Origin: an uncultured Methanosarcinales archaeon
GTDB taxonomy: Archaea > Nanobdellota > Nanobdellia > Woesearchaeales > SKGA01
Reading direction: 5' to 3'
Length of the DNA stretch: 39,038 nt
Assembly: GCA_964603345.1 (NCBI GenBank)
Contig: CAZRUJ010000001.1
Location: 1-39,038 of the forward strand
Position numbers and translations under genes: made by a program. The notes beneath the pieces were generated by a model. That model searched no databases. It was not told where the DNA came from and saw only the letters and a program-made list of their open reading frames with translations. How positions within the stretch are numbered: the stretch's first letter is position 1; every line of letters begins with the position of its first letter. Of this stretch, positions 851 through 24,389 are shown piece by piece.

Positions 851-862
851 GTGAGAGGAAGA

Positions 863-1366: not shown

Positions 1367-1388
1367 CCAAAAACAAGGGTTTTCACCT

Positions 1389-1892: not shown

Positions 1893-1905
1893 TTGTCAAT
1901 CAGCG

Positions 1906-1926
1906 GCAAAAAGATATTGCTTTTTT
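1906..1926 (+). terminator. Possible weak terminator: short GCAA/TTGC hairpin followed by a T6 run
   Basis: gcaaaaagatattgc followed by tttttt at 1921-1926, directly after the stop of 1389..1892. It sits in the only intergenic gap over 100 nt inside the cluster. Confidence 0.3.
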
Positions 1927-1941
1927 AAATTAATGCAAACA

Positions 1942-1949
1942 TTTAAATA
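1942..1949 (+). promoter_or_regulatory. Candidate internal TATA box for the downstream part of the pilin-like cluster
   Basis: TTTAAATA lies about 55 nt upstream of the ATG at 2005. This would leave a leader of about 30 nt containing GAGGTG (1990-1995). A second AT box (ttttatat, 1965-1972) is an alternative. Confidence 0.3.
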
Positions 1950-2004
1950 ATATTATTGTGGTTTTTTATATACTGTTATGTGAATTTATGAGGTGTATTT
2001 TAAT

Positions 2005-2295
2005 ATGATGCGATTGAACAGGAAAGGTTCAGAATTATCGATGAATGTCATTATCATAGCGGCGATCGCTTTGCTCGTGCTCGTGATATTGGCGGTCATG
2101 CTACTTCAAAAAGGCGGTGACCTGAAAGAAGGCACCAGTTGCGAAGCCCTGGGTGGTAAGTGTTGCAGTGCTTGTGACGCTTCATGTTATGATAACCAAG
2201 GGAATACTTACAAGATCCACAATAACGCTCAGGACAGTTCGTGTTCGGAAGGACAACAATGTTGTCTGAAGATAGGCAATAGTCAGAACCGATAA
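2005..2295 (+). CDS. Small Cys-rich class III signal peptide (pilin-like) protein
   Basis: An ATG-ATG pair at 2005 lies 10 nt after GAGGTG, and the ORF-track GTG at 1993 is part of that SD. The N-terminus is MMRLNRKG|SELSMNVIIIAAIALLVLVILAVMLL. The ectodomain is about 60 aa with 8 Cys (CEALGGKCCSACDASC...SSCSEGQQCCLK). Confidence 0.7.
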   Translation: MMRLNRKGSELSMNVIIIAAIALLVLVILAVMLLQKGGDLKEGTSCEALGGKCCSACDASCYDNQGNTYKIHNNAQDSSCSEGQQCCLKIGNSQNR

Positions 2296-2355
2296 GGTTT
2301 TTTGGTTTTTTTCTTCATTATTGTCATATCATCCCATAATGTGAGGTCCTTACCG

Positions 2356-4287
2356 ATGCAGACTCCCTTGTTTTATTCGAAAAAAGCCAGTACTGATGTC
2401 ATACGCATCATAATGTATATTGTTATCATAGGAATAGTGGCTGTTGTCATGCTCAGCCTATTTAGTAATCAAGCGGAAAACGCTGAACGAATGGGCGAAT
2501 GCCAAGGAGCGCTTGGTGGCGTGTGGGCTGAAGAATGCAAGGAGAATATTTCTACACGAGCATCAATGTTTGAAGAACAGGATGGGAAAGTGTGTTGTGT
2601 CAAGAACGTAGGTCTTTCTGATAGGGAGACTGAAGAATTCGAGAAATGGAGAGAAGATCTGGTGCCAGATTCTTCAAAGAGTGCTAGCTCATCACCAGGG
2701 GATGATAGTGAGGGTTCAAGCCCGAGCGGTTCGGATAGGAATGTGTTGAAACTACAAGATACTGAACTTCTATTACAAGAACAGCAAGATAATGAGGATG
2801 TTTTTTTCAGACTCAATGACCGGTCGCTTGCAGGATATACGGATTTAGAAGCTTCAAAAGAATCTAACATACTACATTTGAAAAACCAAAGGAAATACAC
2901 ATTCACTGTCATCAATAATATGGATACTGTCAAGAGTTGCGAGATGGGAATATACAAAGCAGAATCCATTGCCGGAAAATTCAGAGTTGCAGATGCTGAC
3001 AAGAATCCTGTTTCAGGACTTTATGCCAGAAGCACAGATTGCACGAAATTGACAGCACTTTATTCGATCGGAGTGATCAACGAACAAGGTTATTATGTGT
3101 GGGATGTGAAACTCTATGATGAAAACGGCGAGGAATCATTCTCACGAAAAAGGGTGCTTCGTGTAAAAGAAGATATTTCAGAAGATAAGATTATCAAGCA
3201 AAAAATACAGACGGAAACGAGAATTGTGCCAAGTAACGGGGTGGATCGGTGTATGGTCAGTTCGAGACTTCAGGAATATGATGATTCGATCGGAAAGTAT
3301 TTCGATGTTGAGAATGAAGATGTGACTGTCTCCCCAGAACCATATTATATCGGTAACAAACAAGATGAACATGTTGATGGAGATGAACTCTCCTGCCCTC
3401 CGATGACAGGAGATGCATATGGTACAAAGATAGAAGTTGTCGATGCAACAATGGATGATGTCAATCTCGATTTTGCTAAAGATGGTATTCAAGGGGTGTG
3501 TCTAAAGTTTGACGTCTCATCGAATGAATATGACAGGATATATCCTACATCAGGGGCCACAGAACTTGTTACGCTATCAAGCGACCAATGTGATACGCTC
3601 GAATTCATGAACTATTCCACCTTCAAGGATGTATTTTATGAATGCCCATATCCTTGCAAGGAATACGATAATCAGAAAATATCCTGCAATGACAGGGCTT
3701 CGAGAAATCCGCAATGCCAATTGGCGATCGACTGCTACTGGGAATCACAAAGCTTTTTCAATACCAAATGTAAAAGCTGCTCTGAAAACATGAGATGCGA
3801 AGATTATGATAATGAAAAGACGTGCGAGAGCAATCAATGCGTTCCAGGAAAAACATGCTTTTGGGAGGATTCTGCAAGCAATCCTGAAACCCGATTCAAG
3901 ACAGGGCTGTGCATGTCTTGCTCTGAAAAACCAGCATGTAGTAAATATGATTCCAAACAAACCTGTGAAAAGAACCCTTGTGATGCGTATGAAGCAGGAG
4001 AATCCGCATGCACCTGGAACTCTGAAAAGAATCGTTGCACACTCTCTGAAGAGATGCTTAATGCAGGAGCTCCTGAAGAACCGCACGTGGTAGAATGTGA
4101 TGATATGAAACGGGACGAATGCGAAAGCGATGGCAGTTGCTGGTGGGATTATGATGTATTAGGAGGGAATTGTTACGATTGCTCGATGATAGATGAATCA
4201 TGCTCAAACTATCCTGATAAGAATTCTTGTCAAGAGGATTATTGCGGAGTTGGCAATTGCAATTGGGATGATGGTGAATGCCAATGA
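2356..4287 (+). CDS. Large class III signal peptide protein with a Cys-rich head motif, an acidic/Ser-rich linker and five C-terminal Cys/Trp repeats
   Basis: The ATG at 2356 lies 8 nt after GAGGT (2343-2347). The ORF-track TTG at 2302 would add a non-native hydrophobic extension. The N-terminus is MQTPLFYSKKA|STDVIRIIMYIVIIGIVAVVMLSLF, followed by ECQGALGG...KVCCVK. The C-terminal 210 aa hold more than 25 Cys. Confidence 0.7.
   Translation: MQTPLFYSKKASTDVIRIIMYIVIIGIVAVVMLSLFSNQAENAERMGECQGALGGVWAEECKENISTRASMFEEQDGKVCCVKNVGLSDRETEEFEKWREDLVPDSSKSASSSPGDDSEGSSPSGSDRNVLKLQDTELLLQEQQDNEDVFFRLNDRSLAGYTDLEASKESNILHLKNQRKYTFTVINNMDTVKSCEMGIYKAESIAGKFRVADADKNPVSGLYARSTDCTKLTALYSIGVINEQGYYVWDVKLYDENGEESFSRKRVLRVKEDISEDKIIKQKIQTETRIVPSNGVDRCMVSSRLQEYDDSIGKYFDVENEDVTVSPEPYYIGNKQDEHVDGDELSCPPMTGDAYGTKIEVVDATMDDVNLDFAKDGIQGVCLKFDVSSNEYDRIYPTSGATELVTLSSDQCDTLEFMNYSTFKDVFYECPYPCKEYDNQKISCNDRASRNPQCQLAIDCYWESQSFFNTKCKSCSENMRCEDYDNEKTCESNQCVPGKTCFWEDSASNPETRFKTGLCMSCSEKPACSKYDSKQTCEKNPCDAYEAGESACTWNSEKNRCTLSEEMLNAGAPEEPHVVECDDMKRDECESDGSCWWDYDVLGGNCYDCSMIDESCSNYPDKNSCQEDYCGVGNCNWDDGECQ
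3655..4284 (+). repeat. Five tandem protein-level Cys/Trp modules (about 30-47 aa each) inside CDS 2356..4287
   Basis: The modules are CKEYDNQKISC..C..CYW..CKSC / CEDYDNEKTCESNQC..CFW..CMSC / CSKYDSKQTCEKNPC..CTW..C / CDDMKRDEC..CWW..CYDC / CSNYPDKNSCQEDYC..CNW..C. They share the spacing C-x2-Y-[DP]-x4-5-C-x4-C-x4-9-C-x-W-...-C(-x2-C). The DNA copies have diverged and no exact nucleotide repeats are present. Confidence 0.75.
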
Positions 4288-4409
4288 GATTAGTTCGTTC
4301 AATAAAAGGTATGGTTGAGAATCAACTTATTATTATCATATTCATAATCATATTATTGCTTGCGGTAACCACGGCTGTTATGAGGTTGAAATCAAATGTT
4401 CTCGGATAG
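4284..4409 (+). CDS. Unannotated 41-aa micro-ORF encoding a minimal class III signal peptide protein (helix-only pilin-like)
   Basis: My own translation gives MRLVRSIKG|MVENQLIIIIFIIILLLAVTTAVMRLKSNVLG*. Its ATG at 4284 overlaps the TGA of the upstream gene (ATGA), as at four other junctions in the cluster. Its 3' end overlaps the next start at 4396 by 14 nt. It is below the ORF-track length cut-off. An alternative start is the ATG at 4311. Confidence 0.5.
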   Translation: MRLVRSIKGMVENQLIIIIFIIILLLAVTTAVMRLKSNVLG

Positions 4410-5118
4410 AGGAAAAAAGGCAGATGGTCCTTCAATCACCATGACACAAATTATTTTTATTGTTATTGCCATGTTGACTTTTTTCTTCGGGTTTTCATTT
4501 TGTAATACTGCACAAGCAGCTACCAAAGAGACATTTGAAGGGACTGCGTGCAAGGCCATGATAACAACGCAGGAAGTGACTGATTCAATTTTCATGCCTT
4601 CATACAAGAACGCATGCACTACCGTAATCAAAGAATACTCGCTAAAGGATAAGACAGAGGATGATGTGATGGACTTGGTCGCTCAAGGGATGGCGTTCGG
4701 TTGGTGGATGACAAATAAAGGAAAAACAACGGATCTCTGGACGAATGAGAAAGGAGTGCTGAAGGCATCGGGAACTAGCTGTCTTGCCGTGGTCAAGATT
4801 GTGTTTACCGACACCGACAAGCTTGATGAAGATGAACGTGAGAAAATAAACAATATAACACAAGATGACATAAGAGAGTATCTTCAAGAAACTGATAAGA
4901 ATGATGAATATACATATCATACATATATTCAATCTTCAGGAGGTCCAGGGACATATAAGATAAGAAGCGGTATCGATATTGATAGAGAGTATTATATTGC
5001 GATAGCAAGCCCTAGCAGTTCCCGAATGCAAGATGTGTTCGGAAAAGGTGTACAAGCATCATCAGGAGTGATCTTTGCAAGGACTGGAAAATTACCGGAG
5101 GATTGTAAGGTATTATGA
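4396..5118 (+). CDS. Class III signal peptide-like exported protein
   Basis: GAGGT at 4382-4386 lies 9 nt upstream of the ATG. The N-terminus is MFSDRGKKA|DGPSITMTQIIFIVIAMLTFFFGFSF, with the hydrophobic helix slightly displaced from the basic-A motif. Confidence 0.55.
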   Translation: MFSDRGKKADGPSITMTQIIFIVIAMLTFFFGFSFCNTAQAATKETFEGTACKAMITTQEVTDSIFMPSYKNACTTVIKEYSLKDKTEDDVMDLVAQGMAFGWWMTNKGKTTDLWTNEKGVLKASGTSCLAVVKIVFTDTDKLDEDEREKINNITQDDIREYLQETDKNDEYTYHTYIQSSGGPGTYKIRSGIDIDREYYIAIASPSSSRMQDVFGKGVQASSGVIFARTGKLPEDCKVL

Positions 5119-5315
5119 TAGTGCAACTGGCAAGAACGATGATAGATCACATAAGGCTTTCGCGCAAGGCCCAGATGTCGAATCTAACTGAGATCATACT
5201 GATCATAGTGGCGTTTGCCGTGCTTTTAGGCCTTTTCATCTTCTTCACACAGGATAAGGGCTCGGAAGCGACAGAAGCGACAACAGGATTGCTTGATGAG
5301 ATAAGCACCAAATAG
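5115..5315 (+). CDS. Very small class III signal peptide pilin-like protein (mature form about 47 aa)
   Basis: There is an ATGA overlap with the upstream stop. The sequence ...RLSRKA|QMSNLTEIILIIVAFAVLLGLFIFF is followed by only about 22 polar residues. The leader is longer than usual, and the internal ATG for MIDHIRLSRKA is an alternative start. Confidence 0.6.
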   Translation: MIVQLARTMIDHIRLSRKAQMSNLTEIILIIVAFAVLLGLFIFFTQDKGSEATEATTGLLDEISTK

Positions 5316-5325
5316 AAGGTAATAG

Positions 5326-6399
5326 ATGATGGCAGGAATCTCGACGATAGGGAAAGTCATGATTATGGTAATAATCGTATTTTTAGGGTTCCAGCTCATC
5401 ACAAACCAAGGCCTGAATGCACAAGAAGTGACAAACAAATCACTCAATTTCTCGAGTGTCTTGCCAGAGCAGGAGCGTAGCATAAGCAAATATGCTGACG
5501 AAATTGAAGTACCGAATGAGGTTATCCTTTATTTCTATACATTTCTGGAACAAGCATTCAAAGATGATGACCTTTATGAGAATGGTAAGAATAGAGGACG
5601 ATTCGTCTGCATGACGCCACCGCCTGAAACAAATGACGATAATCGTTTCATGATAATTCTAGCACAAAAAGGTAACGACGTCAATGCAGCGCTCTATGAC
5701 GATCAGAAAGAACAGCTACATTTTAAAGATGACTTATTCCCTGACAAATCGTTCTCGTTTCTGAAAGACAGAAAGGTATATATCGTTCCAAACGATTATT
5801 ATGATCCTGATATAAAAAAAGAACCGAAAAAGAACGATGTATATGAAGAGGGTTCAAAACATCTGAACGATCTTATAGCGATGGATCTAAAAACACAAAT
5901 GCCGAAAAGTGATATATCTTACATTAATGGTTTTGATCAGGTTGATGGTCTTCATGCTTTTGAGAATAAATATGAGAACAGATATAACTTTGTCGCTGAC
6001 AATTCCTATGATTTCATATTAGCAGGGAATAACAGACGGCTCAGACCAGGAAGAGTTCATGTGGATGGAAATCATGGACCAAAAAACTTTCACAATAGGG
6101 ATGTCTATGTAGGTTGGGTGACATACCCTGAAGATTGCTTGCTGGCATTCAAAGGGGTCAATAGTATTGGTGCGAAATCAACAGCTTTCATATTGACATC
6201 AAAAACTAATGGTTATAAGGTAAGGCATTTCGAAGATACGAATTTTTGTGTCATGCCTGACTCCGGCCATGAAAAAAAACCAGTGTTAGATCCAGGTTTT
6301 ATCGAGAACTATGTACAGATTGACGATGGAGATTTTGATTGTATTGATAAAAAACTGAGTAAACCAAAATTCCTTTATGACTACTTAAAAAAATATTGA
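5326..6399 (+). CDS. N-terminally anchored exported hypothetical protein in the pilin-like cluster
   Basis: The N-terminus MMAGISTIGKVMIMVIIVFLGFQLI is hydrophobic but lacks a clear [KR]-[GA] leader. The gap to the upstream gene is 10 nt, with GAAGGT upstream. No domain recognised. Confidence 0.5.
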   Translation: MMAGISTIGKVMIMVIIVFLGFQLITNQGLNAQEVTNKSLNFSSVLPEQERSISKYADEIEVPNEVILYFYTFLEQAFKDDDLYENGKNRGRFVCMTPPPETNDDNRFMIILAQKGNDVNAALYDDQKEQLHFKDDLFPDKSFSFLKDRKVYIVPNDYYDPDIKKEPKKNDVYEEGSKHLNDLIAMDLKTQMPKSDISYINGFDQVDGLHAFENKYENRYNFVADNSYDFILAGNNRRLRPGRVHVDGNHGPKNFHNRDVYVGWVTYPEDCLLAFKGVNSIGAKSTAFILTSKTNGYKVRHFEDTNFCVMPDSGHEKKPVLDPGFIENYVQIDDGDFDCIDKKLSKPKFLYDYLKKY

Positions 6400-6422
6400 A
6401 TAATGCTATAGGTGATTGAACG

Positions 6423-6929
6423 ATGAAACCCATGAATACCAAGGCCCAAACAAGAAAGATCGGTGATATAATACTAGTTCTCGCGGTGGTTTTTCTAGTT
6501 ATTGTGCTTGCAAGAAAATATTTCGATATAGGCGATCAGATGGGAGATGAAGCCACAGGAATCGTAGACGATGTTAAAGATTCAGGACTGGATGTTCTTA
6601 CAAGCAAAAATAAAGAAGAGGAAGATGGTGATATGTGTCCGGATAAAGATAAAGGATATTATTCGGTTGATGGAGATGCCCTGTCGCTCGTGTTTGACGA
6701 TTCTGAGAACATAGAAAGGATACATGAGAATGATCTTGAAATTATTGAAAAGTATTTGTCTGAAGAAAAGGATGGTCTTGATTTCGAAAATGAAATGTTA
6801 AATGAAAATCTCAAGCAATCAGCAAATGGAGAGATTCCATCAATAAATAGTTTTTGTCAGAAAACCTCATCTTGTGATCTAGAAAAATTCAAAGAACAAG
6901 CGGATGTAGAACTCATCTGTAAAACATGA
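6423..6929 (+). CDS. Class III signal peptide (pilin-like) protein, acidic ectodomain
   Basis: The N-terminus is MKPMNTKA|QTRKIGDIILVLAVVFLVIVLA. TAGGTGA lies 8 nt upstream of the ATG. Confidence 0.6.
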   Translation: MKPMNTKAQTRKIGDIILVLAVVFLVIVLARKYFDIGDQMGDEATGIVDDVKDSGLDVLTSKNKEEEDGDMCPDKDKGYYSVDGDALSLVFDDSENIERIHENDLEIIEKYLSEEKDGLDFENEMLNENLKQSANGEIPSINSFCQKTSSCDLEKFKEQADVELICKT

Positions 6930-8620
6930 ATGTGATTGTTGGTATGATATTAAGACCTATATTGACACGGAAAGCGACCATGAGCCTGGTGATGTTAATC
7001 AGCATTCTCATGTCGCTTCTTGTCGCATGGGGAGTGTATTCAGGAATCAGAAATATGTACGGGGGATCAGAGGATGATCGAAGTTATGTCATTGATAATA
7101 TCAATAAGCAATTAGAGAAAATAACGACTGAAGGAGAATCATCATCTGAATATACGACATACATTAATCCAGATGAATTTATCATGTTCTTCTCATACAG
7201 CGAGACAAACGAACCCATACGATATGTGTTCGAGTCAGATACCATTCCGGGAGAAACATATTATAGGACATTCGAACGTCCCGATTATGCACCTGAATGT
7301 GAAAAGAGCGCATGCATCTGCAGATGCGATCAAGGACCGTATTGGAAATATGCAAAAGATGGTAATGGGGTGGAAACGGTAAGTTTTGAAGGGTATTCCA
7401 TCCCTGTTATAAAAGATCCAATCAACTCTTTGGCATTCAAAGATAATAAAGAAGCCGAAGGATATATATGTTCTTTAATGGAATGTGTTGCTGTCAAACC
7501 AGAAGAAACAGTCTTTTACAATTCAAGAGGTTATGAAGGTGGTCAAAAATTCATAAAAAAGGATTCTTCAAGCTCTCTTGATATCTATAAAAAAATTTTT
7601 TCAGATGGTGAAGTTGTTCACGATCCAACTAACTTAACATATATTCCGTTTGTAACAATGTATATTCCTTCTCTTGTTGAAGATGCAAAAAAAGAGATAG
7701 AAGAAGTTCGCCCTCAGCTGGGGAGATTTTATAAATTTATATCTGTTTTTAATAATAACTATACATGGCAAGGAGGAGTTGTGTTCGGAGGGCATACTCC
7801 TTTTGTAGGTCCTAAGAAAAACGGATTCAACCAGCCAGCGCCGGTCAGGGTTTCGATGAACTTCCAAACACCTCTTGACGAAGATCATTTCACTCATTAC
7901 ACGCCAGTTGCCGTATGTCATCAAAAGGATCAAAAATCAGAACTTTGTACTTCAAAAGATGCTGAAAAAGACATAAAACAACAAGAAAGGAAGGTTATAC
8001 TTGAAAACGATTTGAGGTTCTATACAGAGTCCTACAAAAATTATCTCGAAGATGATTTCCGTAAATGTATTGCTGAAGCGACGGTAAGAAATGATTATGA
8101 AACCTGTTATGGTGAATTAGGAGCAAGAACTTCAAAATTCTATGAGCTTGATACCATCCTTAAAATTGGAGCGATTAATCAGTTCCAAGAACAATTATTT
8201 AATCATTTGAAATATATCGTTTTAATAGAACAACAAGAAGATGTAGCAAATATTAGTTTAATTATATCTCATATAGAAAATTTAGATGATTATATGAGTA
8301 TTGATGGAATGTCAACGTTTGAAAGAAAAACAGGATTGGATGATGTTGATAAAAATCTTTGTGATGGTTCGCTAGCTGTAAGCGGAGAGTGCTCGCAATT
8401 GTTTGAAGTGACAGTACCTGGTAAGATTCTGTCGACAAAAAAAGATAATGTGGTTGCGATCACCGGTCGGGAAACAACATCAAGGTACGAATACCATTTC
8501 GAGCTTGCAAACGGAGATGAAGATGACAAGTATGAAATCACAACGATAAAAATAGGATCAGGAACGGATTCCAACTTCGTGATGAACTTCACGAAAAAAT
8601 CAACGCCAAACGATGAATAG
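6926..8620 (+). CDS. Class III signal peptide-like large exported protein
   Basis: There is an ATGA overlap with the upstream stop. The N-terminus is ...RPILTRKA|TMSLVMLISILMSLLVAWGVYSG. A Cys cluster APECEKSACICRCDQGPYW is present. No domain recognised. Confidence 0.6.
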   Translation: MNVIVGMILRPILTRKATMSLVMLISILMSLLVAWGVYSGIRNMYGGSEDDRSYVIDNINKQLEKITTEGESSSEYTTYINPDEFIMFFSYSETNEPIRYVFESDTIPGETYYRTFERPDYAPECEKSACICRCDQGPYWKYAKDGNGVETVSFEGYSIPVIKDPINSLAFKDNKEAEGYICSLMECVAVKPEETVFYNSRGYEGGQKFIKKDSSSSLDIYKKIFSDGEVVHDPTNLTYIPFVTMYIPSLVEDAKKEIEEVRPQLGRFYKFISVFNNNYTWQGGVVFGGHTPFVGPKKNGFNQPAPVRVSMNFQTPLDEDHFTHYTPVAVCHQKDQKSELCTSKDAEKDIKQQERKVILENDLRFYTESYKNYLEDDFRKCIAEATVRNDYETCYGELGARTSKFYELDTILKIGAINQFQEQLFNHLKYIVLIEQQEDVANISLIISHIENLDDYMSIDGMSTFERKTGLDDVDKNLCDGSLAVSGECSQLFEVTVPGKILSTKKDNVVAITGRETTSRYEYHFELANGDEDDKYEITTIKIGSGTDSNFVMNFTKKSTPNDE

Positions 8621-8632
8621 ATGACGTCTTAT

Positions 8633-8656
8633 GACGATGTGATCTGACACATCGTT
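8633..8656 (+). other. Perfect 8-bp inverted repeat (hairpin) in the 67-nt gap between two cluster genes
   Basis: ACGATGTG-atctga-CACATCGT lies 13 nt after the stop at 8620 and about 30 nt before the SD and ATG of 8688. It is not followed by an oligo-T run. Confidence 0.3.
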
Positions 8657-8687
8657 TCACATTCATTTAACAAAAAGAGGTCTGCGG

Positions 8688-9599
8688 ATGAGAACATCAA
8701 AGCCAAACAAGAAAGGAATGCTTTCGCTTATGATGCTCGTTGATATTCTCGTCGCTGCAATGGTCGTTCTCATCTTCATAGGAATACATCAAGTTATGAC
8801 AGATAAGGATCAGATCGAGAACATGGTGATGGCAAGGGATGTGGCAACACTTATAGACACCATGCAAACAACAGATAAGGATGTGACTTATCTTTATCCT
8901 GAAAGTTTTTATGAAAAAGATTTCTTTATCAACAAGTCGCAGCTTCTTGTCACCAACAACTTTATAGGTGAAGCTTCAGAACAAGCATCCATGTTAAGGT
9001 ATTTGACACAATATCCTATTCATAGGTCTAAATATTTTCATTTGGACGATAACGAACATCTGGAAGGAGCGAGATTATATTTGCTCAAAAAAAATAATAT
9101 TATAACAATAAATCCTGAAAACGAACAATTGTCTGAAGAAAAGCATGAAGAGATATCGTCTTGGACACGTGAAGAACTCATTCTTACAGTAGCTGCAGGC
9201 GACCAAAAAAACTCATTCATTTCAGATATGGTTGGAAAACTACGCTCACAACTCGAGATAGAAGAATTCAGGATAAAAGATCCTTGCCAATACGTTGATA
9301 TGATAATCATGATAAATGAATCAACAAAGGTTGATAGAGTCACGATCTATTATGAGAGAACCAATAAAGACAAAACAGAAATTATTTCTGAAAAAATAAG
9401 ATATTATCTTGCAAAAAGTAAGAATGTACCTGTTGCCAAAGAAGTCATGGAATACGAACACCCTGAAAACGATGCATCGATAAGAATACTCATACCGCAA
9501 AAGGAAGATGTGAGAACGACACTGAAAAGTTCCGATGAATTCGATATGTTCATAGAGAGGATCGTGTATGCCATGAAAGAATATTATCCTGAAAAATGA
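8688..9599 (+). CDS. Class III signal peptide (pilin-like) protein
   Basis: AGAGGT lies 7 nt upstream of the ATG. The N-terminus is MRTSKPNKKG|MLSLMMLVDILVAAMVVLIFIGI. Confidence 0.6.
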   Translation: MRTSKPNKKGMLSLMMLVDILVAAMVVLIFIGIHQVMTDKDQIENMVMARDVATLIDTMQTTDKDVTYLYPESFYEKDFFINKSQLLVTNNFIGEASEQASMLRYLTQYPIHRSKYFHLDDNEHLEGARLYLLKKNNIITINPENEQLSEEKHEEISSWTREELILTVAAGDQKNSFISDMVGKLRSQLEIEEFRIKDPCQYVDMIIMINESTKVDRVTIYYERTNKDKTEIISEKIRYYLAKSKNVPVAKEVMEYEHPENDASIRILIPQKEDVRTTLKSSDEFDMFIERIVYAMKEYYPEK

Positions 9600-10075
9600 A
9601 AACGCTATTTGACAATAAGAAAGGATCGGAAGGAGATATGTATGTAGCAGCGGAGAAACCCTTCAAGCATATCGTATTCATAATCATAGTCTCTGCTGTC
9701 ATCATCTTATTTCTCTCATATGCAACGAGTTTCATGAGTTCGAAAGTACATGTGCCTGAAACGCTGAAAGGAGAGCTTTTAATGCAACGGATGCAGAATA
9801 TCTGCCTTGCCACAACTGATCCTGTAACAGGAACACCAATTGAGAATGTCATTGATTACTCTAAATTCAACAGTGAAACACTTAACAATTGCTTCAGCGG
9901 AGAAAACACACCGGGACTCTCGGTAGAATTAAACCCTCTTGATAGAATTAATGGGCAATTTGATCGAAAAGTAATAAAAATAGGTCACGGCGGTCAAGAG
10001 CTTGAATATTTACGATATACGATAGTTGATATCGATGGAATAAGATATCCTGCAGAAATGGTGGTGAGAGCATGA
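9596..10075 (+). CDS. Atypical class III signal peptide-like protein
   Basis: There is an ATGA overlap with the upstream stop. The N-terminus is MKTLFDNKKG|SEGDMYVAAEKPFKHIVFIIIVSAVIILFLSYA. The basic-G motif is present, but the hydrophobic helix lies about 18 residues further on. Confidence 0.5.
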   Translation: MKTLFDNKKGSEGDMYVAAEKPFKHIVFIIIVSAVIILFLSYATSFMSSKVHVPETLKGELLMQRMQNICLATTDPVTGTPIENVIDYSKFNSETLNNCFSGENTPGLSVELNPLDRINGQFDRKVIKIGHGGQELEYLRYTIVDIDGIRYPAEMVVRA

Positions 10076-10725
10076 ACAAAAAAGGACAGCACGTGCTTGA
10101 TCTAACAACGCTCATTGCAGGAGTGATTTTTATCGCACTTGCCATTACATTATTCTCATTATTTGCCGATGCACTCGAGGGTAATCAGCAGGAAAAAGTA
10201 ATGGTATCGCAAGCGCAGCTCCAATCAGAGCAATTTGTCAGGACATTTTCCATGACGCCAGTCATGTATGGAGATAAAGAAATTTCTGTTGGGGAGCTTG
10301 CACAAAAGTATTATGACCTCTACATACAAGATGAGATTGGAAATTGCAATGATTGCCAGAAAAAGATGGAAGCCATAAAAATAGTTATAGAAGAAAAAGC
10401 GAACCAAGTGAAACCATTATTTCAAGGATCCTCAGAAGAGCTTAGCATGACGCTCATGAAAGAAAAATCACAAGAAGGCACCAAGGGCACAGTATCTTTT
10501 GAAATAGCCGATGATATAGCGAATAAATGCGAATTGAAGAATGGTGTTTCAAAATTATGTTATACTTATTTGAACAGACCGGCAGCAATATATCTCCCTG
10601 TAATAACATCACAACCGACAAGCAGGTATGACAATTATGTGATTGCTATTGGATTTATCACTAAATGGCTTGATAGTAAGGAACCATACAAGTATGACTC
10701 TGAAGATGCAAAAACTCTAGACTGA
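10072..10725 (+). CDS. Class III signal peptide (pilin-like) protein
   Basis: There is an ATGA overlap with the upstream stop. The N-terminus is MNKKG|QHVLDLTTLIAGVIFIALAITLFSLF. Confidence 0.6.
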   Translation: MNKKGQHVLDLTTLIAGVIFIALAITLFSLFADALEGNQQEKVMVSQAQLQSEQFVRTFSMTPVMYGDKEISVGELAQKYYDLYIQDEIGNCNDCQKKMEAIKIVIEEKANQVKPLFQGSSEELSMTLMKEKSQEGTKGTVSFEIADDIANKCELKNGVSKLCYTYLNRPAAIYLPVITSQPTSRYDNYVIAIGFITKWLDSKEPYKYDSEDAKTLD

Positions 10726-10746
10726 AAACAATAGGGTTGGAATAGG

Positions 10747-13700
10747 ATGAAACAAGTATTTGATTCGAAAAAGGGAGCATCGCTTCTTATCGTGGGATTA
10801 TTTGTCCTGCTTGCCACCCTAGGAATAATAATCGCAGTCAATACGGTCGAGGATGTCCCTGTTATCGGTGAAAAACAATATGCTGTCATGATCGCCAACG
10901 AGAAAGCATCCGCAGTCGATCTCTTTATCGATAACATCCTCTTGAGAGCCGTGAATAAGATGAATGAAGAGTTCTATGAGAATGATGGGGTGTTTAAAGA
11001 AGAGACAGAACAAGGGTCCGTATCATCTTATAAGTGTGGGGAATATATGTTTCCAAGATATTATGTTGCTGGCAGCAATCAGAATTGCATACCTGACTAT
11101 AAAGAAGAATTCAAAAGTTTTGTGTCATCATCCTCATTCAATCAACTGAAGGATTATCCTGATTATTCAATCAATATAAATCCCAGCATCAACTACGTAA
11201 CGCAATCAGATGTGTTCGATTGTGATGGGGACGAAACTATCGCGGAAACACATCGTAGACAAGCACAACAACCCGCTTGGAAGAATGAAGAAAAAACATA
11301 TATTGAAATAGCGTCTGAGGTGGCCTCGGAAACAGGTGTTGATATGCCATTACTGCTGGCTCATGCGACGATTGAAAGCTCTATGGGAAAAGAAAATTCA
11401 TGCACTGATAGCGGAAAGAGTTCCTTGACAGGTTGCGGATGGCCGTCAAGCTGCGCGAGCGGTTGCAAGTGCGAAGATACTAGAGGATATTTCGTGAGCG
11501 ATAAGGCACAATTCGAATGCACGGCACGAGTTGATATAAATGCATTTTTGGCAAAAGGAACATACCAGCGATGCGAAGATCATCTTGATGATAAGAGGAA
11601 ACTGTTCGATTGTGTAATGTGCACCTATCAAGGGAGCTATTATACGGCTCACGGTGAAGGCAATACGAAATCATTTTCCGAAGATGGCACGTGTGAATAT
11701 GCAGAGTTGATGCAAGATCTCTATTGCGGTTGGAAAAACGAACTGGAAGATGATGACCTTGCTAAAACAAGCAATAACGGATTATTCATGACACTCGAAG
11801 CTCAAGAGCCCATAATAATACCTATTGGGGATGTCGATACTACTGATTTTGAAGTCTCACCAGAAAACTATCCCAACGGAATATTGGGAACATATGGCAA
11901 TGAGATCATCATACCTTGCTCGTCATCGAGCTGTCTTGCAGATATCGCAGAATACTATCACAGTATTTATCCGTCTTATAATTATGTTTGGGGTGGAGAA
12001 TCACCATATACTTATAAGGATACTCTCGATTTGACTACTCAGAAGGATTCTATTTTTCACAATATGGAGTCCCAGATCTCAAAGACAGAACCCGGTAAGA
12101 ATGAGTTCACACGACCTGGTTTCGATTGTTCTGGGTGGGTATGGTGGGTCGGGCGCCATGCCAATTCGACTTTATTCAACGCTCGACAAGGGGCGAACGC
12201 ATATTATAATATGTTTTTTGATTCGGATTCGACAAAAGAGGTTTGCGCAAAAAATACTGATACACCGTGCACCATAGAAAACATCGTCAACGAAGCGAAA
12301 CCTGGTGATCTACTATTTTACAAGTCGCCAGATGACCTTGTTGTTTCCCATATTATGATATATGTAGGTGATGGTAAGATAAGTCATGCCAGAGGATCGA
12401 AAGGGCTTGTTAAAGAACCACTACCAGCATCATATGAAGGAAATATCATAGCAGTTTATCATCTCACAGAAAAAGCATTTACGGGCGAATACAATTCGTT
12501 AAAAGATTATATCAACCAAGAAAAAGATTCGGATAAATCAGATCAATCCGAGGATGAAAACATACCCGCCACTTCTTGTTCGTTAACCATTGATTTCTCA
12601 CAGATAAATAAGGACGCAATCAAGAATGAAAGGCTTGGTTATAAGAAAATACAACAAGTTATCGATAAACACAACCTAGATGAAACCATCCGTGAAGCGG
12701 GAGAAAAGTATAATGTTCCATCAGCATATATCAAAGCCATCATCACCGCAGAAGTCGGAGGGCTATCGTTTCTTGATAAATATCTATCCGGTGAGGAAAA
12801 GGTAAGCGAAAGCGGGATGAGAGGACCCATGCAATTATCGAGATCTGCCTGTGATACGCTTAAACAAAACGATATAATTTGTAATTATGATGATATTAAG
12901 AAAGGAGATGTCAAACACGCTATCATGGCTTCAACAGCGAATATAGCATTATTACGGGATAGAACGAAATATATCGATAAAGATAATCCTGATTATTATT
13001 TTCTTTCACTAGCATACAATGCAGGCCAAGGAAGCCTCGCTAATGTGCTTGAAGAAGCGAGCGAACGAACGGGGATTGAAGAACAAGAGCTTTTGTGGAG
13101 AGATATATCCTTTGAAGATGTCAAACAAGGAATCAAACGAGTCGGCACAGGTTGGGCTCAAAAAGAAAGCAAATGGAATGAGGTATATGAATATCCCAAC
13201 CTTGTAGCAACATCACTATCGCAACAATGTACCGGAACACTCTACAAGAAAGGTATGGTGGGAGGTGAGGATTCCAACACAATATCAATTCAACCAAAAT
13301 CAAGGATACCTATTGATATGCCCTTTGAACGATTATCATATATCAAGCACTTCATAAATGATATCGATGATTGTGATGACGAGCTCAAAGATTGTGTCAG
13401 TGACCAACTTAACAAATTCAACTACGGCAGAGAGGGCGCTAGCTTAAGTGAACTGTTTGGATTAACTATATACTCTTCAGAATTCACTGAAAAAAAATAT
13501 GCGGGCGTTTATACGTCAAAGATGTTCGCCTACGAATTTATCGAGGAACTCATGGACTGCTCGACAAATAAGCAAACAGAGTGCGTCTGCGCAATCGACA
13601 TCAACATGTCAAAATTGAAACAAAACACGGTTGATATAGTGTTAGAATGGAATTCTCCGATAGCATCACAGGCTGATCTTATCGTCAATGGAAATTATGA

Positions 13701-15378
13701 AAAGACAATCTCGCTACCACCTCTCTCGGTCAAGACAAAAAGAGAATATATTAATGCCGAAGACAAGTTACATTTAACCTTACATAAGGATCTGGACAGG
13801 GTCGATATAGATGCAGGAATGCAGTCTTGGACATTCGACATCCACAACATCTCGCTCATGAAACACTTCTCCTATGAGGATTATTATCAAAATGAACAAT
13901 TATATGATATTCCTTTATTTCAACGATCGATGGGAGATCTCACCACCAGCATATCACAAAATGATATGGCTTTCCATGATGATTTTATCACCTATTATTT
14001 CAACCCAGAAAACTTCAGACCTGAATATCCTGATATATCGTCGATTCCACAAGAAAGCAAAAAATGCAAAACAGACCTTGTCGATTATGCAAAAAAATAC
14101 TTGGGCACAGGGTATGGGAGTGACGGTATATGTAGCGCTGAAGACGCTCAAGCAGGAAAATGCACCACACAATGTGGCTCATACATTACAAACATATTCA
14201 GAGAAGTATTCAGTGATCCTGTTTATGGAAACGGAAATCAGAAATGTGATATTCACAGCGATGTCAAAAATAATCAGTTCCTCAATCCGGAATTGCTCAA
14301 GCCAGGAGATTTATTCTCTTCAGATGGTCTTTCTGAAGCAGCGAAAAAATATGGTCATACAGGAATGTATGTTGGAAAAGGAATCGTTTCTGATACGGTG
14401 AGAACGACAAGTTCAGGAAAACCTTATTGTCACAGATCATTCACTCAGGATGAGCATGGAGAGCATGTCTTTATCCATTCGGTGGGTCCTGTATGCTATA
14501 GCACTTTTGACGAACTCATATCTCCAGATGGGCAAGCAAGAAACATGATATCATTTTGCAGATATGAGAAATGCAAAGGAGAGCAAACTGAGATCTCAAG
14601 TGTGAAAGCGAGAAGTGGAATGACTCTGATGGAATATGACGAGACGAGAATGGAACCATTCACCTGCAGGGAATCAAAAGATTCATTCGTATTCTTTGCC
14701 TCGCCTAAAGATGTAAATCAAAATATAGGATTCTCGGTCAAACTCAAAGATACGACACCGCCTGACAATGTAGAATCAGTTTCAGCTTCGCAATCGATGT
14801 GCGGAGGAGTGCCGACCGCGATATTCACATGGAAAGACAATCAGGATGATATCTATGCATATAATATAACTGTCAAGAAAATAAATTCGAAAGATTCAAC
14901 AACATTTATCGTACCAATCTCACATACAGTAAAACATCCAAATTCAGATTCAACATCTTTTTTAGGAAATCTCAACATTCTCAATAAACCCTATGTGACT
15001 GAAAAACAACACGGTAGTGAAACAGAAAGAAAATACACTTTCCATGCGGGATCAACGGGTGAGAAAAAGCTATTCAACACGTCAGGAACATATGAGTATG
15101 AGATAAAACCTCTCGATCACCATCTCAATTCACCACCTCGTGGGCGGAAGGATGCGTTTGAAATATTCATTTCAGAAAAAGGACTGGAGAAGATAAGTTC
15201 GTCGATTGTAGGATCAGATATGGTAGGTGATATTTCACAAAAGGCTCTTAAAATATTGCTTGAAAAAACGTGCACGAATTATTATTCTATATTGCAACGT
15301 GATCATGATGCGATATTCTACGATCTTGGAGAATCAAGCATGCTCGATAAAGAGGTGGATCATGCCGTCGAGGAATGA
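10747..15378 (+). CDS. Giant (1543 aa) class III signal peptide protein with two SLT-like lytic transglycosylase and two NlpC/P60-like cysteine peptidase domains plus a C-terminal beta-rich (FN3/Ig-like) region
   Basis: The N-terminus is MKQVFDSKKG|ASLLIVGLFVLLATLGIIIAVN. SLT-1 is GVDMPLLLAHATIESS (Glu codon 11374-11376). NlpC/P60-1 is YNYVWGGESPY...GFDCSGWVWW (Cys codon 12127-12129)...GDLLFYKS...VSHIMIYVGDGKISHA. SLT-2 is YNVPSAYIKAIITAEVGG (Glu 12751-12753)...GPMQLS...LAYNAGQGS. NlpC/P60-2 is AKKYLGTGYG...QCGSYITNIF (Cys 14173-14175)...PGDLFSS...YGHTGMYVGKG...FIHSVG. Confidence 0.8.
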   Translation: MKQVFDSKKGASLLIVGLFVLLATLGIIIAVNTVEDVPVIGEKQYAVMIANEKASAVDLFIDNILLRAVNKMNEEFYENDGVFKEETEQGSVSSYKCGEYMFPRYYVAGSNQNCIPDYKEEFKSFVSSSSFNQLKDYPDYSININPSINYVTQSDVFDCDGDETIAETHRRQAQQPAWKNEEKTYIEIASEVASETGVDMPLLLAHATIESSMGKENSCTDSGKSSLTGCGWPSSCASGCKCEDTRGYFVSDKAQFECTARVDINAFLAKGTYQRCEDHLDDKRKLFDCVMCTYQGSYYTAHGEGNTKSFSEDGTCEYAELMQDLYCGWKNELEDDDLAKTSNNGLFMTLEAQEPIIIPIGDVDTTDFEVSPENYPNGILGTYGNEIIIPCSSSSCLADIAEYYHSIYPSYNYVWGGESPYTYKDTLDLTTQKDSIFHNMESQISKTEPGKNEFTRPGFDCSGWVWWVGRHANSTLFNARQGANAYYNMFFDSDSTKEVCAKNTDTPCTIENIVNEAKPGDLLFYKSPDDLVVSHIMIYVGDGKISHARGSKGLVKEPLPASYEGNIIAVYHLTEKAFTGEYNSLKDYINQEKDSDKSDQSEDENIPATSCSLTIDFSQINKDAIKNERLGYKKIQQVIDKHNLDETIREAGEKYNVPSAYIKAIITAEVGGLSFLDKYLSGEEKVSESGMRGPMQLSRSACDTLKQNDIICNYDDIKKGDVKHAIMASTANIALLRDRTKYIDKDNPDYYFLSLAYNAGQGSLANVLEEASERTGIEEQELLWRDISFEDVKQGIKRVGTGWAQKESKWNEVYEYPNLVATSLSQQCTGTLYKKGMVGGEDSNTISIQPKSRIPIDMPFERLSYIKHFINDIDDCDDELKDCVSDQLNKFNYGREGASLSELFGLTIYSSEFTEKKYAGVYTSKMFAYEFIEELMDCSTNKQTECVCAIDINMSKLKQNTVDIVLEWNSPIASQADLIVNGNYEKTISLPPLSVKTKREYINAEDKLHLTLHKDLDRVDIDAGMQSWTFDIHNISLMKHFSYEDYYQNEQLYDIPLFQRSMGDLTTSISQNDMAFHDDFITYYFNPENFRPEYPDISSIPQESKKCKTDLVDYAKKYLGTGYGSDGICSAEDAQAGKCTTQCGSYITNIFREVFSDPVYGNGNQKCDIHSDVKNNQFLNPELLKPGDLFSSDGLSEAAKKYGHTGMYVGKGIVSDTVRTTSSGKPYCHRSFTQDEHGEHVFIHSVGPVCYSTFDELISPDGQARNMISFCRYEKCKGEQTEISSVKARSGMTLMEYDETRMEPFTCRESKDSFVFFASPKDVNQNIGFSVKLKDTTPPDNVESVSASQSMCGGVPTAIFTWKDNQDDIYAYNITVKKINSKDSTTFIVPISHTVKHPNSDSTSFLGNLNILNKPYVTEKQHGSETERKYTFHAGSTGEKKLFNTSGTYEYEIKPLDHHLNSPPRGRKDAFEIFISEKGLEKISSSIVGSDMVGDISQKALKILLEKTCTNYYSILQRDHDAIFYDLGESSMLDKEVDHAVEE

Positions 15379-15391
15379 GACTGATGGAGGT

Positions 15392-15949
15392 ATGATTTTC
15401 TCCATGAACAAGGTGTATGCTCTGGCAATATTCATAACAGTGTTGTTTCTTATTCCTGTGCCTGCTCAAGCAATAGACTGTGTGGAAGGGATCGACGGTT
15501 ATTGTAATATGGAATGTGTTGAGGTGGATTTTGATTGCGCATCAAATCCGAATCACGAAGGTAATGTTAATATTGGATATGCTAATTCAACAGAAGAAGA
15601 TGTGAATATCAAGGTTGACGAATCCGAATCACAAGAGAATAGAAGCGATGTACTACGTCAGGAAACGGCTGACCCTTTCAAGAAGCCCACATCTGAAGGT
15701 TTCGATATAGTCCTCATAGCAGGATTCGCTGGAGGATTGTTGATGATGATAGCATTCCTTCTTGTTCTTAGAAGGTATGAGATACGAAAGGGCCATACGA
15801 GAAAAGAATCAACATCAATCAAAGAATACATACAGCGGGTGCGAAGCCAAGGGTTTGGTGATACCAAGATACAGCAAGCGCTCCTTGAGAGGGGATATTC
15901 CGAGAAAATCGTCAGAGAAGCGTTTCAAGCACTGGACGGACAGGAATAA
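15392..15949 (+). CDS. Sec-type signal peptide, single-pass membrane protein with a Cys-rich ectodomain and a small cytoplasmic helical C-terminal domain
   Basis: The ORF opens at 15227 inside the previous gene. Plausible starts are ATG 15362, 15392 (just after GGAGG) and 15404. The sequence MNKVYALAIFITVLFLIPVPAQA|IDCVEGIDGYCNMECVEVDFDC is followed by a TM helix IVLIAGFAGGLLMMIAFLLVL. The tail is IKEYIQRVRSQGFGDTKIQQALLERGYSEKIVREAFQAL. Confidence 0.6.
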   Translation: MIFSMNKVYALAIFITVLFLIPVPAQAIDCVEGIDGYCNMECVEVDFDCASNPNHEGNVNIGYANSTEEDVNIKVDESESQENRSDVLRQETADPFKKPTSEGFDIVLIAGFAGGLLMMIAFLLVLRRYEIRKGHTRKESTSIKEYIQRVRSQGFGDTKIQQALLERGYSEKIVREAFQALDGQE

Positions 15950-23390: not shown

Positions 23391-24389
23391 ATGAATTCGT
23401 TCTACAATGACTTCTTACGGCTCAAGCGCGCGACGATAAAATCGCAAGGTAAATTCATATTCCGATCCAAAGACTACATCTCGCATAAGAAGGAAGATCT
23501 GACATTCTCTCCTTTACAAGATACAACCACTGACATAGTAGGTTTTATAGATGGAGGACAACAGATCCTGTTCGAAAGCCCGTCATTTCTGATAGGGATG
23601 GTGAGGGTTGCTGTGAGTTTGTGGAGAGGGTCAAAACGATATGCGATGAAGGTCAAGGAATTCATCGTTTTTCTTCAGGCGGAGGAAAAAGGCTATACAT
23701 CCAAGTGCTATGATATGCAGGGTATGCCTGTACAACCATTCAAGACAATGGATATTAACACCATCAACCATCTCGATGCTGATGATGGTGAATCGGCAAT
23801 ATCTATGTTGAGACGATTCTCTGAGTTGCTGATGGCTGCGGATATTGCAGGACAAGTCGATGTCATCTGTATCGATGGCTCATTAAGATGCTTTTCAGGG
23901 ACTGAAAATCATATCATGAACCAGCTTCTCAAACAGGCAGCGAAACGAGGGGTGATTGTTTCCGGATTGCAGAAATCAACCAGCATGATGGCGGACAACT
24001 CCTCGACAATCCAATCGCTTGAACCATCTTACAATGCAGGAGCATGGATAACATCGCCCTTGTGCATCAACAATACTATGATGCATCCTGCCAACATACA
24101 TATCATCAAGCTCCATAAGGACGCGGCTCATCGATTTGTCATCGATATAGCAAGAGGATATGATCAGGTCAAGACAGGAGTATCGTTGCTTGCAACATCC
24201 TCAGATCCCCTATTCATAGGGTATCCTTATGGCATGATTGATGTAGACAGACTAGCGAGAATAGAAGACTCAAGAAAAGAGCAATCAAGACTTGATATCA
24301 GGAAACTATTGGCCGGTTCAAACGAATTCCTCGATAGGGAGATCCTTTCAAAAAATGCGCACGAGATACTTGATTCGATGTCATTCTGA
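23391..24389 (+). CDS. nurA: NurA-domain nuclease (putative)
   Basis: NurA-like motif pattern: GFIDGGQQ, VICIDGSLR, GLQKSTS and FIGYPYGMIDVDRLARIE. An AT-rich box lies about 25-33 nt upstream of the ATG. The call is by motif recognition only. Confidence 0.55.
   Translation: MNSFYNDFLRLKRATIKSQGKFIFRSKDYISHKKEDLTFSPLQDTTTDIVGFIDGGQQILFESPSFLIGMVRVAVSLWRGSKRYAMKVKEFIVFLQAEEKGYTSKCYDMQGMPVQPFKTMDINTINHLDADDGESAISMLRRFSELLMAADIAGQVDVICIDGSLRCFSGTENHIMNQLLKQAAKRGVIVSGLQKSTSMMADNSSTIQSLEPSYNAGAWITSPLCINNTMMHPANIHIIKLHKDAAHRFVIDIARGYDQVKTGVSLLATSSDPLFIGYPYGMIDVDRLARIEDSRKEQSRLDIRKLLAGSNEFLDREILSKNAHEILDSMSF

Follow-up and report, generated by a model that had tools for sequence, protein, structure and literature searches.

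The window analysed here is a stretch of 39,038 nucleotides (contig CAZRUJ010000001.1 of GenBank assembly GCA_964603345.1) from an uncultured archaeon of the Woesearchaeales lineage. Its central feature is a gene (10747..15378, + strand) that encodes a predicted 1543-aa multi-module murein hydrolase, recognised from the list of open reading frames (ORFs) and from Pfam. We propose, with a probability of about 0.6, that this is a cell-surface hydrolase with several catalytic modules that closes an operon of proteins with class III-like signals and that it acts, likely on or beside a filament, to breach the wall of a bacterial partner. A preliminary description of the sequence had announced a 1543-aa ORF at these positions, as the ORF listing bears out, and the product is identical to a deposited NCBI protein, "MAG: NlpC/P60 family protein [Nanoarchaeota archaeon]" (MAG, metagenome-assembled genome). 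The four catalytic codons named there (11374, 12751, 12127 and 14173) are those of E210, E669, C461 and C1143. Homologous loci and proteins are referred to below by L and P numbers.

Modules and catalytic residues of the hydrolase

The NlpC/P60 endopeptidase domain (PF00877, MEROPS C40) spans aa 413-558 (11983..12420, +) and matches Pfam with E = 1.2e-12 and 48.1 bits, against a cut-off of 23. Its catalytic residues are Cys461 (codon 12127), His535 (codon 12349) and His547 (codon 12385). In the family profile, the motifs GFDC461SGW, SH535IMIYVG and ISH547A stand in register with GFDCSG, SHMGIYIG and FIHA of LytE, and the profile also matches structures of CwlO, Spr/MepS and Tn916-type conjugative wall hydrolases. 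LytE and CwlO are D,L-endopeptidases of Bacillus subtilis. A GH23 lytic transglycosylase (SLT) domain follows at aa 647-775 (12685..13071, +; PF01464, E = 4.6e-7, 29.8 bits against a cut-off of 21.3). In the alignment with MltC, its Glu669 (codon 12751) falls on the catalytic Glu of the IES motif, and the family shows no variation in the motifs GPMQLS and AYNAG. The preliminary description had called these two domains NlpC/P60-1 and SLT-2, and both calls are confirmed by the matches above cut-off and by the aligned catalytic residues (to LytE and CwlO, and to MltC).

The segment at aa 1106-1285 (14062..14601, +) had been read as a second NlpC/P60 domain. From the window sequence alone it matches nothing in Pfam or the PDB, but its family profile identifies a member of the superfamily. 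An exhaustive search recovered about 60 representative clusters of this CHAP-like module in many architectures, and Cys1143 (codon 14173), His1204 (codon 14356) and His1244 (codon 14476) are invariant in an alignment of 35 sequences. The 35-member profile matches the structures of CwlO (E = 1.1e-5), Spr and MepS with the Cys and His aligned; about 30 residues are inserted ahead of the third catalytic residue. At E <= 0.01, CHAP (PF05257) is matched by 17 of the 35 members and NLPC_P60 by 15, and the ortholog P0002 reaches 25.9 bits for CHAP against a cut-off of 26. These profile comparisons support a genuine but divergent papain-fold peptidase of the CHAP/NlpC-P60 superfamily.

The supposed first SLT domain is a Cys-rich module at aa 170-345 (11254..11781, +), of the sequence type ESSMGK...SSLTGCGW..., in which Glu210 of the ESSMG motif (codon 11374) is invariant in the family. 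It has no SLT match in Pfam, and neither a single-sequence search nor the family profile finds a sequence match in the PDB. Matches to Glucosaminidase/GH73 (PF01832) fall below the cut-off of 30.2 bits, both for the window protein (E = 0.089, 13.9 bits) and for the same module in P0008 (E = 0.0036, 18.4 bits). The AlphaFold2 (AF2) model is all-helical, with a per-residue confidence (pLDDT) of ~75-90 over much of the module. When it was compared with the PDB by Foldseek, about 48 of the top 50 matches were lysozyme-fold peptidoglycan (PG) glycosidases, including phiKZ gp144, T7 ejectosome proteins, MltE, goose-type lysozymes, Tse3 and the GH73 enzymes Auto and AtlE. Stand-alone homologues also occur as small proteins fused to PG_binding_1 or PG_binding_3 (P0011, 218 aa; P0012, 306 aa), and for this reason we regard the module as an independent, mobile PG-targeting unit outside the curated families. 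Alignment and model together suggest that it is likely a lysozyme-like PG glycosidase. What survives of the SLT-1 call is thus a lysozyme-fold or GH73-like resemblance, itself weak, and an invariant Glu; the GH23 identity does not survive.

The protein had also been described as two rounds of one SLT plus NlpC/P60 dyad. We reject this reading: hhalign gives a probability of 1% for the Cys-rich module against SLT, and the two peptidase modules resemble each other only at the level of the superfamily (71% probability, E = 3.7e-5 over 58 columns). The sequence comparisons instead point to four different modules joined in one chain, each real or likely, with one of them statistically weak.

At the N-terminus, aa 1-31 (10747..10839, +) form a class III-like signal or anchor, SKKG↓ASLLIVGLFVLLATLGIIIAV (the arrow marks the predicted junction), with a single transmembrane (TM)-like segment. 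The class III signal of the preliminary description is thus present, and its junction is conserved, K9 and G/A10 being kept family-wide. A family-specific N-domain follows at aa 32-165 (10840..11241, +), in which the family alignment shows G41, Q44, Y45, C97, G98 and C114 to be invariant. The start deposited for the ortholog P0002 (1521 aa; L001 9917..14566) appears to lie too far inside the gene; with an in-frame start further upstream the protein has 1549 aa and regains a class III-like N-terminus (…SSKKG↓VSLLLSSIFVLLMVIGII).

Towards the C-terminus, aa ~1313-1473 (14683..15165, +) form a beta-rich region, probably a tandem FN3/Ig-like beta-sandwich in a low-confidence model. Its beta strands have a pLDDT of 55-75, and the FN3/Ig matches found by Foldseek (E ~ 1e-3 on a poor model) give the earlier FN3/Ig-like call weak support. 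The AF2 model of aa 840-1543, with a mean pLDDT of 44, is unusable for the CHAP-like module and for aa 840-1100.

Module exchange within the family

As the family alignment makes clear, modules have been reshuffled from one homologue to another. The invariant core consists of the signal, the N-domain and NlpC/P60, and the smallest members (L012, L013) are 648 aa long. The Cys-rich module lies upstream of NlpC/P60 in the window protein and in P0002, and downstream of it in P0004-P0009. SLT is present in some members only, namely the window protein, P0002, P0003, P0010, L004, L006, L007 and L010. The C-terminus of P0004-P0009 is a VanY/M15-like module, recognised by a weak Pfam match (E = 0.02) and by HxxAGAxD and WHFE motifs. 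L014 has a Glucosaminidase-like region (E = 1.7e-4) downstream of its NlpC/P60 domain; it may be a different glycosidase module, because the Cys-rich profile does not detect it.

The catalytic residues of NlpC/P60 are invariant in close relatives, with Cys replaced by Ser in three distant homologues (P0004, P0008 and P0009, motif GFDS(A/S)GW). P0004 also has TTQD in its CHAP-like motif, with Asp in place of the catalytic Cys. Such modules with Ser or Asp at this position may be inactive binding modules or may use an altered nucleophile. The window hydrolase, in contrast to these homologues, retains all its catalytic residues.

The operon and its products

The hydrolase gene is the last of 12 consecutive ORFs on the + strand (851..15378). 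Each operon product has exactly one hydrophobic segment, and it is N-terminal. The pattern [KR][GA] precedes this segment in 11 of the 12 ORFs, as against 1 of the 22 other ORFs of the window, and Gln is common at +1 (KG↓Q, KA↓Q), as in archaeal pilins.

The third gene (2008..2295, +) encodes a small conserved pilin-like protein with a precursor of ~95 aa, made of RKG↓SELSMNVIIIAAIALLVLVILAV and a tiny head with six Cys. Its N-terminus is near-identical in L001 (52..336), and it is also present in L002, L006 (twice, within 163..701), L007, L008 and L014 (three times, within 4067..4895), so that some genomes carry two or three tandem copies. The common pattern is K-G↓xE(L/M)SxN, ~25 hydrophobic residues and a ~45-aa head with six invariant Cys. 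Such a design is that expected of a major filament subunit, and its sequence makes the protein a candidate for this part. Searches of the PDB and Pfam found no pilin family and nothing significant, the matches being to TM helices and to a carboxypeptidase inhibitor of knottin/defensin-like type. The likeness of the head to the knottin/defensin type is itself insignificant (tick carboxypeptidase inhibitor, E = 0.14; Defensin_beta for one member, E = 0.0032).

Two pilin-like proteins are encoded ahead of this gene, one of 171 aa (851..1366, +; QKG↓QIQIGETIFIVIFILIII), in which K-G precedes the single N-terminal hydrophobic segment and which has an ortholog in L002, and one of 167 aa (1389..1892, +; RKA↓QSEIIGLVIIVLIV), assigned by its N-terminal pattern and a sub-threshold match to TIGR02537. 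After the gene for the small protein comes that for a large pilin-like protein of ~643 aa (2356..4287, +), which has the N-terminal pattern KKA↓STDVIRIIMYIVIIGIVAVV. Its C-terminal ~200 aa consist of several Cys-rich repeats of ~35-40 aa (e.g. CSENMRCEDYDNEKTCESNQC, CSEKPACSKYDSKQTCEKNPC and CSNYPDKNSCQEDYC); Pfam has no match for the protein or for its repeats. The remaining products, all encoded on the + strand, are pilin-like by their N-terminal pattern and comprise proteins of 240 aa (4396..5118), 168 aa (6423..6929), 564 aa (6926..8620), 303 aa (8688..9599), 159 aa (9596..10075; its L001 and L004 orthologs share an NKKGS(E/D)GD motif) and 217 aa (10072..10725). The sole unflagged member of the operon is a 357-aa protein (5326..6399, +), whose N-terminal hydrophobic segment is without K/R-G/A at the listed start.

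Directly 3' of the hydrolase gene, here and in most related loci, lies a gene for a 185-aa membrane protein (15392..15949, +) with a Sec-type signal, a Cys-rich ectodomain, a C-terminal TM segment and a short cytoplasmic helical tail. The ectodomain motif DCVEGIDGYC...DFDCASNP is kept in L001, and the tail has weak RecX_HTH2/UBA-like matches. This protein may act together with the hydrolase, anchor it or regulate it.

Distribution, host and contig

Among 185,579 species-representative genomes, family-type NlpC/P60 domains (32-53% identity) turned up at 13 loci only, all of them from Woesearchaeota, Nanoarchaeia or Nanobdellota-type MAGs, some being third-party annotation (TPA) bins labelled Methanosarcinales. 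After a sharp drop, the next-best matches are bacterial (Acidimicrobiia, Gaiellales, Bacillaceae; 24-30% identity). The preliminary description had raised the question of whether homologues always close a pilin-like operon, and we found that in L001-L010, L012 and L014 the hydrolase gene stands at the end of a series of 6-12 class III-like genes. Its downstream neighbours are, at most of these loci, the small membrane protein and/or RPA, YdjM and an ABC transporter. The arrangement is kept in about 10 DPANN species representatives, among them a complete chromosome (L012). OY970338.1, JBNJHD01 and JBKGYN01 are examples of complete or nearly complete genomes with the operon. A scan of genome contigs with the ORF at 53..850 gave no match.

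The bins of L005, L008, L010, L011 and L013 are named "uncultured Methanosarcinales archaeon" and carry the DPANN-type operon and hydrolase in the same synteny; the label is probably wrong. In L007, from a member of the Nanoarchaeia, a KsgA/RrnaAD rRNA dimethylase gene (669..1403) lies among the first pilin-like genes; the operon tolerates housekeeping insertions.

A bacterial or chimeric contig is ruled out, since the neighbouring genes are archaeal (RPA with a Rep_fac-A_C domain, YdjM, an ABC-2 transporter, an HVO-type winged helix-turn-helix regulator, HerA, a KaiC-like ATPase and AspRS), the GC content of the window is uniform (0.36-0.45) and the gene order recurs in other DPANN MAGs. The archaeal origin assumed in the preliminary description therefore holds. 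A phage origin, with the protein as a virion lysin, was rejected as well, as tblastn gave no match for the hydrolase in 50,697 phage records.

Elsewhere in the window, a NurA-like gene (23391..24389, +; a faint match in the L001 ortholog) and herA (27403..28950, -) lie on opposite strands with an alpha-amylase-family gene between them, and the usual adjacent herA-nurA pair is not formed. HerA and the KaiC-like ATPase (29095..29910) were considered as assembly ATPases and set aside, as neither is in a pilus context. A protein of ~500 aa with nine TM segments (37085..38593, -) has a counterpart in L002 (19801..21381, -; 42% identity), where it lies near the operon. It was considered as a prepilin peptidase of the 9-TM type and cannot be called one, because it has no Pfam match even at E <= 10.

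Proposed role and alternative explanations

The domain calls and the murein target are well supported. From its N-terminal class III-like signal or anchor and N-domain, the hydrolase would carry four predicted wall-cutting modules, a Cys-rich lysozyme-like one, an NlpC/P60 of D,L-endopeptidase type, a GH23 lytic transglycosylase and a divergent CHAP-like cysteine peptidase, followed by the beta-sandwich region. Glycan-cutting and stem-peptide-cutting modules are thereby joined, as would be required for piercing a sacculus locally. This pairing had been noted in the preliminary description, and the Pfam and profile alignments show its catalytic residues to be intact. In the scheme that we favour, the operon products would be matured in the manner of type IV pilins, and machinery with genes elsewhere would build them into a filament or a short pseudopilus. 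The hydrolase would be placed on or beside this structure as a "modular pilin" and would, at the contact site, make a local breach in a bacterial partner's wall that serves attachment, feeding or predation. The sequence comparisons establish the identities of the domains, their catalytic residues, the conservation of the operon, the confinement of the family to DPANN and the bacterial affinity of the NlpC/P60 domain. We infer the signal cleavage, the filament assembly, the substrate and the biological role of the hydrolase and its operon; display of the hydrolase on a pilus is plausible.

GH23 lytic transglycosylases require N-acetylmuramic acid (MurNAc), and the action of NlpC/P60 and CHAP-type cysteine peptidases is not strictly limited to murein. 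The latter point would allow for a pseudomurein target in a methanogen host, or for a wall polymer of the archaeon itself, and several related bins do bear the label Methanosarcinales, though probably by mistake. We nevertheless consider such a target highly improbable, and judge bacterial murein to be most likely the substrate. This preference follows from the MurNAc requirement of GH23, from the VanY/M15-like and PG_binding_1 modules of relatives, which suggest a D-Ala-containing murein, and from the nearest NlpC/P60 relatives and structures, which are bacterial murein D,L-endopeptidases. No genes for murein or pseudomurein synthesis were found in the window. A published survey, moreover, found pseudomurein producers to be largely devoid of archaeal peptidoglycan hydrolases (PGHs) (PMC12352652).

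Several observations weigh against a filament-associated, four-module hydrolase. Neither the 39-kb window nor the 10-kb flanks of related loci contain a T2SSE/PilB/ArlI ATPase, a TadC/ArlJ platform protein or a Peptidase_A24 prepilin peptidase, and the operon of L012 is flanked by LeuRS/HAD (directly upstream) and RPA. No operon protein scores above the cut-off of any curated pilin or class III model; the best score, 14.6 bits (E = 0.017), is that of ORF 1389 for TIGR02537, a model of the archaellin/type IV pilin N-terminal domain with a cut-off of 20, and the hydrolase and the small subunit have no match to such models at all. The N-domain of the hydrolase, helical at low confidence in the AF2 model, has no recognisable pilin alpha/beta fold, and its sequence shows a Pro/Gly-containing break between the hydrophobic segment and the next helix. 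A cargo of 1543 aa is much larger than that of known modular pilins. The fold assignment of the Cys-rich module, finally, is statistically weak, the best Foldseek match having E = 0.14 and none being individually significant. The missing assembly genes do have a precedent: pilin loci can be unlinked from ATPase loci, and nanoarchaeal type IV pilus (T4P) ATPases have been reported without identified pilins (PMC4858521).

The same gaps would be expected if the N-terminal segments were plain, uncleaved signal-anchors. The operon would then encode a membrane-tethered complex of ectoproteins or a wall-like layer, and the tethered hydrolase would act at cell contact without any filament. No assembly ATPase, platform or peptidase lies near any operon copy examined, no curated pilin model was passed, the N-domain is not pilin-like, and several operon proteins are very large for pilins (564-661 aa). 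We still hold this to be rather unlikely, as the positive-inside rule alone leaves unexplained, across about 10 species, the near-constant Gly or Ala at -1, the frequent Gln at +1 and the conserved xE(L/M)SxN motif of the small subunit. A mature protein of ~75 aa with one hydrophobic helix and a tiny head is, in addition, typical of a filament subunit.

The hydrolase might also be mainly nutritional, digesting PG debris or dead bacteria so that an auxotrophic DPANN cell gains amino acids and amino sugars. A "DPANN shunt" and the use of dead-cell peptidoglycan as a source of amino acids have been proposed (PMC9723730; PMC11537232), and a set of modules with multiple specificities would degrade sacculi thoroughly. 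The N-terminal tether and the conserved surface-structure operon are a better fit to contact-dependent action, however, no genes for muropeptide uptake or catabolism adjoin the operon, and the neighbouring ABC-2 transporter is of the exporter type. As the main function we find nutrition unlikely, but it is compatible with a contact-dependent breach of bacterial walls and does not exclude it. In our estimate it is very unlikely that the protein is released as a weapon against competing bacteria, as Woldo and Danwoldo, PGHs of halophiles, are. Archaeal PGHs are able to kill bacteria (PMC12352652), but the protein has no cleavable signal of Sec or Tat type, and with its hydrophobic anchor or class III signal it is more likely to be retained. 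The gene also keeps its synteny and is conserved by vertical descent in a lineage believed to depend on hosts; neither a mobile element nor a plasmid-like contig carries it, and it shows no similarity to phages.

Beyond the contact-dependent, possibly filament-associated hydrolase that we prefer, a bolder version can be put forward tentatively. The ~12-gene operon would encode the subunits of a dedicated organelle, similar to a type IV filament and vertically conserved in Woesearchaeota/Nanoarchaeota-type DPANN archaea, with which these would attach to living bacteria. Its terminal "modular pilin" would open the bacteria with an interchangeable set of murein hydrolases, the NlpC/P60 core being combined with SLT, GH73-like, Cys-rich, CHAP-like or VanY-like modules. 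If true, such a filament-borne drill would be the first molecular mechanism for episymbiosis or predation by an archaeon on a bacterium, and the operon would supply the "missing" cognate pilins of the nanoarchaeal T4P ATPases.

Comparison with known systems

Hydrolases of Gram-positive conjugative type IV secretion systems (T4SS), such as PrgK of pCF10, TraG of pIP501 and the Orf14 type of Tn916, have an N-terminal anchor, SLT and CHAP or NlpC/P60 domains, and open a local gap in murein. The window protein likewise has SLT and CHAP/NlpC-P60 modules behind an N-terminal membrane anchor, and its NlpC/P60 domain matches hydrolase structures of Tn916-like conjugative transposons. The comparison with conjugation hydrolases made in the preliminary description thus holds as an analogy between domains but does not extend to a T4SS gene cluster: VirB4, VirD4, VirB6-like, relaxase or other T4SS genes were not found in the window, and the sole HerA/FtsK-like ATPase (27403..28950) lies far off among housekeeping genes. 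Unlike these systems, the producer has no murein of its own, the modules number four instead of two or three, and the partner proteins are pilin-like.

Phage virion-associated hydrolases and type VI secretion effectors (tail or ejectosome lysins, T7 gp16, Tse1/Tse3) share the pairing of glycosidase and endopeptidase, directed from outside against a foreign wall. Unlike the phage lysins, the hydrolase is a chromosomal, syntenic cellular gene with no similarity in the phage records searched.

Modular type IV pilins such as PilB and PilC of Streptococcus sanguinis are widespread in bacteria, including the candidate phyla radiation (CPR) (PMC8179133). Like the window protein, they graft modules onto a class III-type N-terminus, are encoded with other pilins, and are predicted to be displayed at the filament tip. 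The examples of that study are, however, bacterial, their pilin domain (IPR012902) can be recognised, most of their modules serve adhesion and no murein-hydrolase cargo is mentioned, whereas the window protein is without a recognisable pilin module and has a cargo of ~1400 aa. An archaeal precedent for functional, non-filament cargo is the Sulfolobus bindosome, in which sugar-binding proteins with class III signals are assembled in a T4P-like way (PMC4858521). In contrast to the hydrolase operon, the bindosome locus encodes an ATPase and a membrane protein of its own, and the task of its cargo is to bind solutes, not to hydrolyse a foreign wall.

Large murein hydrolases of Woese- and Pacearchaeota, with a proposed action on the walls of bacterial partners, have already been published (PMC8204110; Vigneron et al. 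2022, PMC9723730; PMC12352652), and the core of the earlier interpretation is therefore not new. In Nanoarchaeota, PGHs are reported to be especially prominent (PMC12352652). The family fam00969 (PMC8204110) comes from the same lineages and consists of very large extracellular proteins with an SLT/GH23 domain and a proposed role in binding or degrading the partner wall. Compared by description only, the window protein resembles it in being large, extracellular, SLT-bearing and restricted to Woese- and Pacearchaeota. In the window family, NlpC/P60 is the constant core and SLT is present in some members only. The published descriptions cover the SLT domain and the size only, and report neither NlpC/P60 as a core nor CHAP-like or Cys-rich modules, a class III-like N-terminus or the operon. 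The words "pili" or "pilin" do not occur in the published papers on DPANN murein hydrolases (PMC8204110, PMC9723730, PMC12352652), the archaeal pilin literature that we searched does not mention peptidoglycan hydrolases, and we found no paper in the literature searched that joins Woesearchaeota, pilin and peptidoglycan. The link of a murein hydrolase to a pilin-like operon therefore appears to be new, as do the class III-like N-terminus and the swappable set of modules centred on NlpC/P60. A survey that considered only Sec and Tat signals left 68% of archaeal PGHs without a recognised signal (PMC12352652), and our results suggest that such Sec/Tat-only surveys miss a class III route.

Most Woese-, Pace- and Nanoarchaeota are uncultured, and large murein hydrolases have so far been the main genomic hint that some of them may have bacterial instead of archaeal hosts. 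The conserved operon and its hydrolase suggest a dedicated apparatus for breaching bacterial partners. With its invariant last-gene position, its NlpC/P60 core with swappable modules and the N-terminal signature shared with its neighbours, the family described here turns that hint into a defined, testable apparatus, and offers concrete targets (the small conserved subunit, the residues E210, C461, E669 and C1143, and cleavage at Gly10) for antibodies, assays, cryo-electron tomography and the inference of host range.

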